Shown: in pieces, positions 1 to 47,069 of the stretch | How the letters are laid out: the number at the start of each line of letters is the position of its first letter | How positions within the stretch are numbered: the first letter of the stretch is position 1 | Assembly (NCBI GenBank): GCA_913055655.1 | Contig: CAJXKA010000001.1 | Coordinates: 680,842 to 744,841, forward strand | Direction of reading: 5' to 3' | Origin: an uncultured Oceanospirillales bacterium | GTDB lineage: Bacteria; Pseudomonadota; Gammaproteobacteria; Xanthomonadales; SZUA-36 | DNA: 64,000 bases | Made by a program: the position numbers and the translations under genes | Notes under the pieces: generated by a model | The model's database searches: none | Told to the model about the DNA's origin: nothing | The model's input: only the letters and a program-made list of their open reading frames with translations

Positions 1-278
1 TGGCACCCATACCGTGCCAATCGATAAGTCAGAAGTCGACCTGTACTGTGTTTATTGTCCGGATACGGATGAGTGCTATTACCTGGATCCGTCCGAGTTT
101 GGCTCGACAGTCTGCTTGAGGGTAGTGGCTCCCAAGAACAGTCAGACAAAAGGCGTGCGTTTCGCCACTGACTTTCGAAGGGCTCCGTAGAGACTATACG
201 TGCAGCGCCTGAGATGGCGAAGAGATAGTCCAGACCACAAACCTGCCTGGCAGGGCCGCGAAAACGGTAGTTGGTAAG
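1..278 (+). mobile_element. Group I intron, 3' portion (the 5' part lies upstream of the window)
   Basis: R-like core element GTAGAGACTATACG at 187-200 and S-like element AAGAGATAGTCC at 220-231. GACTA 192-196 pairs with TAGTC 226-230 (P7). P8-like hairpin CGCC/GGCG at 206-219. P9-like helices at 234-275. Terminal G278 directly precedes a tRNA 3' half. Confidence 0.7.
2..190 (+). CDS. Intron-encoded PD-(D/E)XK-type homing endonuclease, C-terminal 62 codons (partial, start outside the window)
   Basis: Frame-2 ORF is open from the window edge to TAG at 188-190. Translation: GTHTVPIDKSEVDLYCVYCPDTDECYYLDPSEFGSTVCLRVVAPKNSQTKGVRFATDFRRAP. It resembles the C-terminus of group I intron-associated PD-(D/E)XK endonucleases (I-Ssp6803I family), recognised from memory. 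The ORF runs into the intron R element. Confidence 0.55.
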   Translation, partial: GTHTVPIDKSEVDLYCVYCPDTDECYYLDPSEFGSTVCLRVVAPKNSQTKGVRFATDFRRAP

Positions 279-320
279 CTAAGCCGACGGTTGCAGGTTC
301 GAGTCCTGCCGGGCGCGCCA
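279..320 (+). tRNA. tRNA-Arg 3' exon (anticodon positions 35-36 = CU; UCU inferred, CCU possible)
   Basis: CTAA + GCCGA (3' anticodon stem) + CGGTT + T arm GCAGG-TTCGAGT-CCTGC + acceptor CGGGCGC + G + CCA. T arm and acceptor end are nearly identical to the enterobacterial tRNA-Arg 3' end. No D arm or 5' anticodon stem lies upstream in the window. Confidence 0.65.
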
Positions 321-405
321 ATTGACGGTAATATTGCGCAAACCGGGGCGCAAAGTATGTATAATTCCCGGCCCGGCGACTGATGTCGGCGGCAACAGTT
401 TTATG

Positions 406-481
406 GTGGGCGTAGCTCAGTTGGTAGAGCACCGGATTGTGATTCCGGCGGTCGTGGGTTCAAGCCCCATCGTCCACCCCA
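406..481 (+). tRNA. tRNA-His (GUG)
   Basis: Cloverleaf read by eye. G-1 is present; anticodon arm CCGGA-TTGTGAT-TCCGG; T loop GGTTCAAGCCC; encoded CCA. Confidence 0.95.
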
Positions 482-752: not shown

Positions 753-1127
753 TCAGGACCTGGGCCGATAGTTCACACCGGCCAGTCCTTCGAAATCGCT
801 GTCCTGGGTCCACAGTGTCGCGTTCCACGCCTGGGCAGTGGCGAAGATGATGCTGTCGGCCAGTGGCAACTTATGTCGTAATCCAAAATCCGCGGCGCTG
901 ATCGCCAGGTTGGCATCCAGGTCCACCACCTGCGCGTTGCGCATATAGGCTGAAACTTTCAGCGCCTCATGCTCCGAAACTTCGCGCGAGAGGTGCTTGA
1001 AGACTTCCGTGATCGTGACCGTGGGCACCACGAGCTGGTCAACGGCCTCCAGGGCCGGGGCGAACCAGTCCGCGTTCGGCTCTTCGGCCAGGTAGGACAG
1101 CCAACCGGAGGAGTCCACGACGTTCAC
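753..1127 (-). CDS. vapC: PIN-domain ribonuclease toxin VapC
   Basis: GTG start. Begins VNVVDSSGWLSYLAEEPNADWF and ends in DSIIFATA...TQDSDF, typical PIN acidic residues. 4-nt overlap (GTGA) with the upstream antitoxin. Confidence 0.85.
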   Translation of the reverse strand: MNVVDSSGWLSYLAEEPNADWFAPALEAVDQLVVPTVTITEVFKHLSREVSEHEALKVSAYMRNAQVVDLDANLAISAADFGLRHKLPLADSIIFATAQAWNATLWTQDSDFEGLAGVNYRPRS

Positions 1128-1330
1128 AGCCGGTCCGGGTCTCGTTCGATGTGCGTGTCGATGCCCTCGTAACGACCGCGCATCTCGCGGATCGATCGTA
1201 TGGGCACCAGCTCGATCCGGCCCTTGTAGGCCAGCACCTGGATTTTCTCGCCGGGTTCGAGGTTCAGCGACTCCCGGACATCTTTGGGAATGACGACCTG
1301 GAATTTGGGTGAGAGGGTGACGGTTGTCAT
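1124..1330 (-). CDS. vapB: AbrB/MazE/SpoVT-type antitoxin (VapB)
   Basis: 68 aa: MTTVTLSPKFQVVIPKDVRESLNLEPGEKIQVLAYKGRIELVP. SpoVT-AbrB fold signature; overlaps the vapC start. Confidence 0.8.
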   Translation of the reverse strand: MTTVTLSPKFQVVIPKDVRESLNLEPGEKIQVLAYKGRIELVPIRSIREMRGRYEGIDTHIERDPDRL

Positions 1331-1701: not shown

Positions 1702-3012
1702 ATGCAAGTCACAGTTGAGAATCCGGGCGGCCTGCAGCGCCGCCTGACCGTGCAGGTTCCGGCCGGCGAAGTCCAGCAGCAGATCGACGCGCGCCTGCGC
1801 GAGATCGGCAAGACCGCACGCCTGAAAGGTTTCCGTCCCGGCCGCGTGCCGATGAAAGTGCTGCAGCAGCGCTTCGGCCCCTCGGTCCGCAACGAGATCG
1901 TCTCCAAGACGGTCGAGTCCAGCCTGGCCCAGGCCATTCGCCAGGAGTCGCTGAAGCCGGCGGCCAACCCGGTCATCGAATCCGTGCCGGAAGTGAAGGC
2001 CGACAAGGACTTCGAGTTCACGGCCACCATCGAGGTGATGCCGGAAATCGACAAGGTCGACACGGCCGCCATCGAGGTCAAGTCACCGGACGCGGAAATC
2101 ACCGAGGACGACATCGACGACATGCTGAACACGCTGTGTGAACAGCGCGCCACCTGGGAAGAGGCCAACCGCCAGCCCAAGGACGGCGACCAGGTGCTGA
2201 TCGAATACGCCGCCGACACCAAGGACGGCCGCGTGCCGGAAGAGGGCATGTCGCGCCTGGCGATCGTCATGGGCCAGTCCGGTTTCGACAAGCTGGAGAA
2301 AGTCCTGGCCGACCTGACCACCGGCGGCGTCACCGAGACCAAGCTGAAATTTCCCGACGATTTCCGCGAACAGGCCCTGGCCGGCAAGAAGGCGGACGTG
2401 TCACTGAAGATCGACAGTGTGCGTGAAAAGCACCTGCCGGAAATCGACGCCGAGTTCATCCAGTCCTTCGGTATCGAGAGTGGCGACATGGACGAGATGC
2501 GCAGCGAGGTTCGCAAGAACCTGGAGCGCGAGATGAAAGGCGCACGCCTGACGCTGTTGAAGACCCAGATCCTGAACGCGCTGCTGGCCAGCCATGAAGA
2601 CCTGGAAGTGCCCGAGGGCCTGGTCCGCCAGGAAGCGGCGCAGTTGCTGCAGACGCAGGCACGCCAGCGCGGCTTCGAGCCGGATCCGTCCATGCTGCCG
2701 CAGTTCAGCGACGTTGCCCGCAAGCGCGTCAAGAGCGGCCTGCTGATCAGCGAGATTGCCCGCCAGAACGACATCATCGTCGACGGCGCCAAGGTGCGCG
2801 AGGCAATCGAGTCGGTGGCCAGCACCTACGAGCAGTCGCGCGAAGTGGTGCAGATGTACTACAACAACCCCGAACTGTTGAACTCTGTCGAGGGTTCGGT
2901 ACTCGAAGAGCAGGTGGTTGACTGGGTGCTGGATCACGCTAAAGTGAACACCGAGGCGATGAGCTTCAAGGACCTGATTAACGCGGCCGCCCAATCGAGG
3001 CAGGGATTATGA
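1702..3012 (+). CDS. tig: Trigger factor
   Basis: 436 aa starting [21 protein letters not shown]... with ...GFRPGRVP; position upstream of clpP-clpX-lon. Confidence 0.97.
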
Positions 3013-25994: not shown

Positions 25995-26071
25995 TGGTCG
26001 GCGTGGCAGGATTTGAACCTGCGACCCCTTCAACCCGAATGAAGTGCGCTACCAGGCTGCGCCACACGCCG
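25995..26071 (-). tRNA. tRNA-Pro (CGG)
   Basis: The reverse complement gives CGGCGTG...CTTCA-TTCGGGT-TGAAG...GGTTCAAATCC...CACGCCGACCA. Confidence 0.95.
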
Positions 26072-46028: not shown

Positions 46029-47069
46029 ATGGATAAAGCCCTAAAACAAAGACTCGTCGGGGCGAGCGTGCTGGTGGCGCTGGCAGTGGTCGTATTGCCG
46101 ATGTTGCTGGGCGGTCAGCCTGAAAGCCCACCCGAAGCGCGCCAGATCGAGATTCCCCCCAAGCCGCGCGAAACCTCGTTCGAGACCCGCCGTTTCCCCA
46201 TCGGGGAACAGCCGGCCGATACACCGTCCGTGGTGCCGCCGGCCGGGGAGGCGCCGCCCGTCAGCCTGCCGGCCCCGAGGATCGAGCCGGCGACGGAAGG
46301 CGAACCGGAATCGGCACTCGCGGCGGAGGCGGCCACCGACAATGCCGCCGCAGCGCCCGTGGAAGCGGGAGACCCGGAGCCGGTAACGCCACCGGATGAA
46401 GCAGATGCGACGTCCCCGGAACCGGGAGCGGCAACGGCTTCAACCGGCGATCCGGATGCCGGGGACGGCGCCGAACCGCTGCTGGTCGAGGCTGAACCCA
46501 CCCCGAGTGAAGCAGCGCCCGCGCCAACCCCGGCGCCCGCCACGCCGGCGGATCCGGATGGCCGCTACCTGGTCCAGGTGGCCAGTTTCAGCGCCACCGG
46601 CAATGCCACGCGGCTGGCGTCGCGGCTGCGCGAACAGGGCCTGCCCGTGATCGAGGATACCGTCGACAGCGAGGCCGGCACGCTGCACCGGGTGCGGCTG
46701 GGGCCTTTCGACGATCGTGCCCGGGCCGACCAGGCCATGGCGACACTGCGGCGCCAGTACTCGGACCTGCGACCACGCTTGCTGGACCTGCGGCCCGACG
46801 AGGAGTCGCCGGTCACCGAGCCGTCTGACCCGCTGGTTCGCTGGGTCGTGCAACTGGGCAGCTTCGGTGAGCCGGACAATGCCGAGCAACTGGTCTTCCG
46901 CCTGCGCGATGCCGGCTACAGCGCGTTCAGCGTGGCGGTATCCGGTTCACCGGGTACCGTGCACAAGGTTCGCGTCGGCCCGGTGGTCAGCCGCGACGAG
47001 GCCGTGCGAATCGAATCCCAGATCGAGTCATCGATGGGGCTGGACGGACTCGTCATGAGCACCGACTGA
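46029..47069 (+). CDS. SPOR-domain cell-division protein (DedD-like)
   Basis: N-terminal TM anchor, Pro/Ala/Glu-rich linker, and two SPOR-like repeats (RYLVQVASFS...RVRLGPF; WVVQLGSFG...KVRVGPV). Confidence 0.8.
   Translation: MDKALKQRLVGASVLVALAVVVLPMLLGGQPESPPEARQIEIPPKPRETSFETRRFPIGEQPADTPSVVPPAGEAPPVSLPAPRIEPATEGEPESALAAEAATDNAAAAPVEAGDPEPVTPPDEADATSPEPGAATASTGDPDAGDGAEPLLVEAEPTPSEAAPAPTPAPATPADPDGRYLVQVASFSATGNATRLASRLREQGLPVIEDTVDSEAGTLHRVRLGPFDDRARADQAMATLRRQYSDLRPRLLDLRPDEESPVTEPSDPLVRWVVQLGSFGEPDNAEQLVFRLRDAGYSAFSVAVSGSPGTVHKVRVGPVVSRDEAVRIESQIESSMGLDGLVMSTD

Follow-up and report, generated by a model that had tools for sequence, protein, structure and literature searches.

The 64,000-nucleotide stretch analysed here (the window, from contig CAJXKA010000001.1 of an uncultured Oceanospirillales bacterium) opens inside what appears to be a tRNA-Arg(UCU) gene into which a mobile group I intron is inserted. 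All features of this gene that fall in the window lie on the plus strand. The tRNA 3' exon occupies positions 279-320 and carries the anticodon nucleotides CU, A37, A38, the 3' strand of the anticodon stem, the variable loop, the T arm, the 3' strand of the acceptor stem, G73 and CCA. Window positions 1-278 are nucleotides 363-640 of the 640-nucleotide intron, whose 5' part lies upstream of the window. This portion includes an R-like element (GTAGAGACTATACG, 187-200), an S-like element (AAGAGATAGTCC, 220-231) and, at position 278, the omega-G that ends the intron and marks the 3' splice site; a G precedes CTAAGCC in every complete relative. A first-pass annotation of the window had proposed an open reading frame (ORF)-bearing group I intron that splits a tRNA-Arg gene. 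Every string it quoted, namely the R and S elements, the P7 pentamers, the P8 and P9 hairpins, G278 and the 42 nucleotides ending in CCA, is present where it was placed, and its interpretation is borne out by the upstream half of the gene, by covariation and by membership of the encoded protein in PF11645. We assign a probability of about 0.88 to the reading that a tRNA-Arg(UCU) gene, of which window 1-320 forms the 3' end, is split by a 640-nucleotide mobile group I intron of subgroup IC3, class 'Arg.3Ug'.

The missing half of the gene was read from a Joint Genome Institute (JGI) metagenome contig, L008, the one contig retrieved in a search by sequence identity with the trigger factor that window 1702-3012 encodes. 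The first 5,527 bases of the window are identical to L008, with mismatch confined to the last 16 bases of the contig, and L008 reaches 4,299 bases further upstream than the window start (window position = L008 position - 4299). This extension had been set beforehand as a test of the intron hypothesis, and L008 indeed holds a tRNA 5' half (GCGCCTG, a D arm and CCGGC-CU-U) followed by P1 through P6. The gene is composed of a 35-nucleotide 5' exon (L008 3903-3937; GCGCCTGTAGCTCAACCGGATAGAGCACCGGCCTT) that ends in C32-U33-U34, the intron (L008 3938-4577) and the 42-nucleotide 3' exon (L008 4578-4619), which supplies tRNA positions 35-76. Joining the exons in silico yields a 77-nucleotide tRNA that ARAGORN recognizes as tRNA-Arg(tct) with one C27.A43 mismatch. 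The first-pass annotation had predicted the anticodon UCU on the supposition that the 5' exon ends in U, as it does. The intron is thus inserted between tRNA nucleotides 34 and 35, in the anticodon loop, a position that defines class 'Arg.3Ug'; the corresponding junction of an intron-less tRNA-Arg(UCU) gene reads ...GAGCAYCGGCCTTCTAAGCCGRNGGTTG... When the window alone is searched, neither ARAGORN nor Rfam reports a tRNA at 279-320.

The intron carries the full group I set of helices P1-P9, including the P3/P7 pseudoknot, and the terminal G. P1 pairs the exon sequence CUU(U) with the guide (G)GAG upstream of the window, in L008, and places a U-1.G pair at the splice site. It is followed by a P2 of 9 base pairs, by P4 (ACGGGG/UCCCGU), and by P5 and P5a, which form a CCUUAAC..GAUGG block that resembles a tetraloop receptor. 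P3 joins CUGCAC (L008 3981-3986) to GUGCAG (window 200-205) and crosses P7. The 5' strand of P6 (CCUUCG) lies upstream, just after GGAAA, and its 3' strand (CGAAGG) is at window 176-181. J6/7 (182-191; GCUCC-GUAGA) contains the stop codon of the ORF. Part of the guanosine-binding helix P7 is formed by GACUAU (192-197) and AUAGUC (225-230), which include the pentamers GACTA (192-196) and TAGTC (226-230). Between the strands lies the P8 hairpin (206-219), with CGCC at 206-209, a UGAGAU loop and GGCG at 216-219; J8/7 (AAGAG) and the P7 3' strand together span 220-230. The three-way P9 domain (234-275) is closed by ACCA (234-237) and UGGU (272-275) and holds P9a (CCTGC 242-246/GCAGG 250-254) and P9b (CCGC 256-259/ACGG 264-267), the latter capped by GAAA. 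A single copy of the combined R..S core pattern is present in the window, versus 0.00 copies in 100 dinucleotide-preserving shuffles.

Strong evidence for these helices comes from covariation. A MAFFT alignment of the window intron (with its P6 loop trimmed) and 32 ORF-less relatives provided 33 sequences in which 56 pairs could be scored. Of the cells, 98.0% are paired, versus 86.7% after column shuffling (a value as high was reached in 0 of 500 shuffles) and 33-42% when the partners were slid by 1-3 columns. Changes on both sides are present in 27 of the 56 pairs, distributed over P2, P3, P4, P5a, P6, P8, P9, P9a and P9b. All P3 and P8 cells are paired, with compensatory changes in four of six P3 pairs and in two of four P8 pairs (AU/GC). 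The outer P6 pairs also vary in concert (CG/UA at one and UA/GC/UG/CG at another), and P9, P9a and P9b are 95-99% paired with two, three and three compensatory pairs, respectively. Another count, on 82 distinct sequences, of which the MAFFT alignment is independent, agrees in that nearly all pairs are standard and many positions exhibit two to five pair types. The U-1.G pair of P1 is invariant in both sets (33/33 and 82/82). P7 is likewise invariant across the covariation set, but is uninformative because the search pattern fixed its sequence. For P9, the shape proposed in the first-pass annotation is reproduced by the minimum-free-energy fold of 231-278, whereas the energy of that fold is not unusual relative to shuffled sequences (z = -0.74), and so the support for this domain is covariation rather than thermodynamics.

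The ORF occupies the P6 loop (L008 4073-4489) and encodes 138 amino acids, of which codons 77-138 and the TAG stop codon (188-190) fall within the window at 2-190. The fragment of 62 residues matches PF11645 with 46.2 bits (curated cut-off 26.1 bits), and the full ORF reaches 128 bits over profile positions 1-136 of 138. Thus, the initial assignment to the PD-(D/E)XK endonuclease family, made from the fragment, holds for the entire protein. A profile of 23 family members (54-82% identity) matches I-Ssp6803I (PDB 2OST_A) with E = 3.4e-6, whereas the single full-length sequence matches 2OST weakly (E = 0.22). D39, Q52 and K54, all encoded upstream of the window, are invariant in the 23 sequences and align with YDLV...VQVK of 2OST_A; these are reportedly the catalytic residues (Zhao et al. 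2007). There are 1,084 clusters of homologous proteins, and the best 120 of the 1,084 are 74-82% identical. One cluster, from a Woeseiaceae metagenome-assembled genome (MAG), bears the NCBI name "group I intron-associated PD-(D/E)XK endonuclease". NCBIfam gives no family match for the ORF; a sub-threshold match to the YajD HNH family was disregarded, as was the single, spurious match of the 62-residue fragment to PDB sequences.

The coding sequence and the ribozyme core overlap. The last codons, CGA AGG GCT CCG TAG (window 176-190), constitute the 3' strand of P6 and most of J6/7, and P7 begins two bases past the stop codon. The same six nucleotides that form the P6 strand (176-181) also encode C-terminal ..RR.. 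residues. The ORF has a G+C content of 52.5%, versus 64.1% for the window.

Relatives of the intron are widespread. The exact 57-nucleotide core of the window was found in seven species-representative genomes, which are MAGs of Wenzhouxiangella, Woeseiaceae, Candidatus Rariloculaceae and two less precisely named proteobacteria. Each of the seven has the same 5' exon 216 to 631 nucleotides upstream, and differences in intron length are due solely to the ORF insert. When the pattern was relaxed (R element, 15-40 nucleotides, S element), it was found in at least 120 metagenome contigs, and 107 of the 128 loci listed share the 19-nucleotide P3'/P8 spacer of the window. Because the exact core recurs in seven genomes and the looser pattern in at least 120 contigs, the core is not a chance resemblance. 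The loci with the 19-nucleotide spacer include 90 complete genes, all of which read ...CCTT, intron, CTAAGC... and are therefore tRNA-Arg(UCU) genes. With introns allowed, ARAGORN reports tRNA-Arg(tct) with an intron after nucleotide 35 in most relatives. Their acceptor stems differ widely, which indicates diverse bacterial hosts, including those of human-gut metagenome contigs.

The P6 insert exists in several states among the 90 complete genes. An intact PDDEXK_5 ORF is present in 31, the ORF is full-length and frameshifted in four, and about 11 have an internal deletion that leaves N- and C-terminal coding remnants. Another 39 have no similarity to the ORF at E <= 0.001, and in 29 of these the loop is no longer than 30 nucleotides. 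The remaining genes carry an unrelated HNH ORF near P1/P2 instead (four genes) or an unclassified P6 insert (one gene). Such a mix is expected if a homing-endonuclease gene has repeatedly invaded, decayed and been lost. In the Legionella adelaidensis plasmid NZ_LR134418.1 (131088-131164), there is a tRNA-Arg(UCU) gene without an intron whose sequence matches the exons of one relative (L108) at 94.8% identity; it exemplifies a potential homing site that is unoccupied.

The HNH ORFs occur in same-core tRNA-Arg(UCU) introns of L017 and L071 (both human-gut metagenome contigs), L047 and L033. They encode HNH_3 endonucleases of 175-186 amino acids (Pfam, 49.8 bits), begin directly after the 5' splice site in the P1/P2 region and read into P4. 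Two endonuclease families have therefore entered this intron class, each at a site of its own.

Homologues of the PD-(D/E)XK protein also exist as free-standing phage genes. Synechococcus phage Sf-FR1 (PV340855.1; L129 1360-1986) carries one that is 58% identical, located within a tRNA cluster 67 nucleotides downstream of an intact intron-less tRNA-Arg(UCU) gene, and the end of this ORF overlaps a tRNA-Val gene. In Acinetobacter phage Herod (MW316732.1; L130 1412-1947), a homologue with 39% identity is likewise situated in a tRNA cluster, 22 nucleotides downstream of another intact intron-less tRNA-Arg(UCU) gene. A more distant homologue resides between tRNA-Met and tRNA-Tyr genes of Escherichia phage 241 (L131). 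The first two arrangements suggest that this endonuclease clade is tied to tRNA-Arg(UCU) DNA outside introns as well.

The R..S pattern with other spacers was also encountered in short group I introns of other tRNA genes: tRNA-Asn GUU (L070, L084), a tRNA-Gln-like gene (L052), tRNA-Met CAU (L057, L087) and tRNA-Leu UAA (L031, L022). Fourteen further matches are AT-rich, have spacers of 38-39 nucleotides, lie outside tRNA genes and are organellar or rRNA-type in appearance.

By analogy with established group I intron and homing-endonuclease biology, the element would function as follows. The transcript would fold, and an external guanosine bound in P7 would attack after U34. G278 would then take the place of this guanosine, and the freed 5' exon would attack after G278 to produce ligated tRNA-Arg(UCU). 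The endonuclease would be translated from intron RNA and would cut intron-less tRNA-Arg(UCU) DNA, probably at the near-palindromic anticodon stem-loop, as suggested by I-Ssp6803I. Repair from the intron-containing allele would then copy the intron into the cut site, which constitutes homing. A ribosome can finish the ORF only by opening P6 and J6/7, so that translation should preclude splicing of the same RNA molecule, and vice versa.

Several observations weigh against our interpretation. The Rfam group I intron model RF00028 (gathering cut-off 50 bits), which the first-pass annotation had put forward as a refuting test, gives no match in a gathering-threshold scan of the window and none at E <= 10 on window 1-420, L008 or L004. 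An AlphaFold2 model of a close homologue (P0003), built from a 21-sequence alignment, has a mean pLDDT (predicted local distance difference test) of 48, which is too poor to establish the fold. Both splicing and endonuclease cleavage are predictions from the analogies given above. Moreover, C259.A264, the pair beside the P9b GAAA loop, is mismatched only in the window copy (1/82 sequences), and the tRNA itself has two weakened pairs: C27.A43 in the anticodon stem (2/82 sequences) and U6.G67 in the acceptor stem. These three pairs could signal early decay. Finally, a second, intact tRNA-Arg(UCU) gene is possible elsewhere in the genome.

The RF00028 result reflects low sensitivity of the model toward this clade and is not a refutation, because two ORF-less relatives score below the cut-off but along the entire model (L030, 40.4 bits, E = 6e-8; L009, 34.9 bits, E = 3e-6) and because all the introns tested from other tRNA genes pass. 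A third ORF-less relative gives no score. Specifically, introns of tRNA-Asn, tRNA-Leu, tRNA-Gln-like and tRNA-Met genes that contain this R..S pattern score 51.7-68.9 bits, which connects the core of the window with accepted group I introns, and the P7 sequence in the window is the same as in these RF00028-positive introns and in the Azoarcus intron. The low scores probably stem from variant junctions in the window clade (J3/4, the segment after P4' and J6/7). Williams 2020 (bioRxiv 10.1101/2020.01.27.920355) describes the RF00028 seeds as containing no bacterial sequence.

A rival explanation is that the intron splices, but that its ORF no longer supports homing, so that the element is immobile and vertically inherited, or the protein is kept for another role such as assistance with RNA folding. 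Several related families share both the tRNA cluster (Pro, Arg, His, Lys, in synteny) and the position of the intron within it, which fits vertical inheritance, and the C-terminus of the protein is welded into P6 and J6/7. However, D..QxK remains invariant in the 23 sequences despite their divergence, and close relatives exhibit intact, frameshifted, deleted and empty forms, as a cycle of gain and loss by homing predicts. The G+C content of the ORF, 12 points below that of its host, and the homologues that adjoin intron-less tRNA-Arg(UCU) genes in two phages also argue for mobility. We therefore consider loss of homing to be unlikely.

Another scenario accepts the intron and its endonuclease gene as genuine, but regards this copy as decaying, with impaired splicing and a tRNA pseudogene that is backed by another tRNA-Arg(UCU). 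The three weakened pairs described above are consistent with such a state, as is the decay of the ORF in many relatives. Yet the ORF of this copy is intact and retains all family-invariant residues, all other core pairs are standard, and single C.A or G.U pairs are tolerated in many tRNAs and helices. tRNA-Arg(UCU) is the only reader of AGA. Since genes in the window use AGA codons (13 in 40 long ORFs), a tRNA of this kind is needed, and no other tRNA-Arg(UCU) gene is present in the 64-kb window or the 4.3 kb upstream of it (about 68 kb). We regard a decaying copy as quite improbable.

A duplicated tRNA 3' half (279-320) at the att (attachment) site of an integrated element, with coincidental group I-like motifs, had been named in the first-pass annotation as an alternative and can be dismissed: its sole attraction is that the window itself lacks a 5' half, whereas the halves flank the intron contiguously in L008 and in all seven genome relatives, in L008 and every relative the upstream distance to the 5' half, which is on the same strand, equals exactly one intron length, the 138-amino-acid endonuclease gene is the only gene between the halves and no integrase gene is found there, and the helices covary.

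Beyond the split-gene interpretation, we tentatively raise a broader possibility. Woeseiaceae-type tRNA-Arg(UCU) introns might constitute a distinct IC3 sub-lineage with re-modelled J3/4 and J6/7 that is missed by standard models, and their endonuclease clade might be specialised for tRNA-Arg(UCU), existing both as a passenger of bacterial introns and as a free-standing gene that directly follows intron-less tRNA-Arg(UCU) genes in the tRNA clusters of phages. J3/4 and J6/7 of group I introns contact P4 and P6. The proposal is doubtful at present; if true, it would suggest that endonucleases move between the tRNA clusters of phages and the tRNA introns of bacteria.

The split gene is part of a co-oriented tRNA cluster in the order Arg(ACG), Pro(UGG), split Arg(UCU), His, Lys and Ser. 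A strong promoter-like site (TTGACA-17-GATAAT) precedes the upstream tRNA-Arg(ACG) gene (L008 3678-3754), and a terminator-like hairpin of 11 pairs followed by TTTATT (L008 3765-3790) separates this gene from tRNA-Pro(UGG) (L008 3814-3890). Given this hairpin, transcription of the split gene may start separately from tRNA-Arg(ACG), with tRNA-Pro as part of the same transcript. Further into the cluster, tRNA-Ser(GGA) and tRNA-Leu(UAG) flank a gene pair on the minus strand (window 753-1330) that, according to gene calls and Pfam matches, encodes a PIN-domain toxin and an antitoxin of MazE/AbrB type. A second tRNA-Pro(CGG) called by ARAGORN at 46457-46534 (minus strand) has an odd anticodon position, fails Rfam and probably reflects spurious detection in a GC-rich coding region. 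It was considered together with the tRNA-Pro(CGG) at 25995-26071 as a pair of genomic island borders, but the two have no real similarity.

A group I intron in tRNA-Arg(UCU) belongs to an already described class that is very common in metagenomes, and the finding does not change what is understood of group I introns or homing endonucleases. Its practical consequence concerns annotation. Because default tRNA finders and Rfam miss the split gene, genomes of an abundant sediment group would seem to be without tRNA-Arg(UCU), and the endonuclease would look like an orphan "hypothetical protein" between tRNA genes. In addition, the roughly 90 sampled genes represent the life cycle of a homing endonuclease as a clean natural series, from intact to frameshifted, internally deleted and lost, in which the C-terminus of the protein is locked into the ribozyme core. 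We found no paper on this clade, its abundance or its ORF states, within a literature coverage that is incomplete.

The first-pass annotation had considered an ORF-bearing tRNA-Arg intron unusual for a gammaproteobacterium. This view does not stand, given the Arg.3Ug class, introns reported in Beggiatoaceae and the Woeseiaceae protein named by NCBI. Williams 2020 (bioRxiv 10.1101/2020.01.27.920355) raises the number of bacterial tRNA group I intron classes from the four classical ones, which make up the list in the first-pass annotation, to 21, and its seed alignment contains Rba190.Arg.3Ug, from a tRNA-Arg(UCU) gene with the same insertion site. This seed shares with the window intron the host gene type, the CUU/CUAA insertion after the wobble U, U-1, the omega-G and the P1 pairing CUU/GAG, as well as the GGGGAAACC..GGCAAUCCCG block of P4/P5, the GUAGAGACUA..AUAGUCCAG block of P7 and a GAAA-capped P9b. 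In contrast, the window clade departs from Arg.3Ug and other IC3 tRNA introns in J3/4 (UGUA versus AAAUU), after P4' (GGAAA versus GCCAAG) and in J6/7 (G(A/C)UCC versus AAGGU), and it differs from the seed by its short P8 and frequent P6-loop ORF. The Beggiatoaceae introns likewise reside in gammaproteobacterial tRNA-Arg(UCU) genes. As cited by Flood et al. 2016 (PMC4853749), MacGregor 2013 described tRNA-Arg-TCT genes of Beggiatoaceae that a putative group I intron splits and that escape standard tRNA annotation. These introns are about 250 nucleotides long (the gene spans 324 bases) and are therefore probably ORF-less.

The closest precedent for the pairing of intron and endonuclease is the tRNA-fMet intron of Synechocystis PCC 6803, which is also IC3 and encodes the PF11645 enzyme I-Ssp6803I (PDB 2OST), with D..QxK aligned. 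It differs in the tRNA and site (fMet.2Ug) and in its cyanobacterial host, and the proteins are distantly similar (E = 0.22 for the single sequence, 3e-6 for the profile). The Azoarcus tRNA-Ile(CAU) intron is the IC3 model with crystal and cryo-electron microscopy (cryo-EM) structures. It has the same helix order, a 3-base-pair P1 followed by CC and P2, a receptor-like CCU(U)AA..(G/U)AUGG P5, and identical GUAGAGACUA and AUAGUCCAG segments around P7; the window clade shares the arrangement GUAGAGACUA...AAG(A/G)(G/C)AUAGUCCAG with the Azoarcus, Leu.3Ug and Arg.3Ug seeds. However, the Azoarcus intron is inserted after the third anticodon base (5Ug) of another tRNA, has no ORF and a simpler P9, and retains canonical J3/4 and J6/7.

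The cyanobacterial and plastid tRNA-Leu(UAA) intron (Leu.3Ug) uses the same 34/35 insertion point and the same exon CUU paired to GAG, and the P9 of the Ncf2.Leu.3Ug seed (ACCAC-AAA-hairpin-GCGAAAGC-UGGU-AAG) overlays that of the window almost exactly. A metagenomic Leu(UAA) intron (L031) has the same R..S pattern and passes RF00028. This class differs in its tRNA, in its canonical junctions and in usually having no ORF. The Agrobacterium tRNA-Arg(CCU) intron (Arg.5Ug) is likewise an IC3 intron of a proteobacterial tRNA-Arg, but it interrupts the CCU isoacceptor just past the last anticodon nucleotide (Williams's position 5) and has no ORF. The intron class, the endonuclease family and their association are already known, and the window intron adds to them a well-documented member that has its ORF in P6 and comes from a Woeseiaceae-like gammaproteobacterium.

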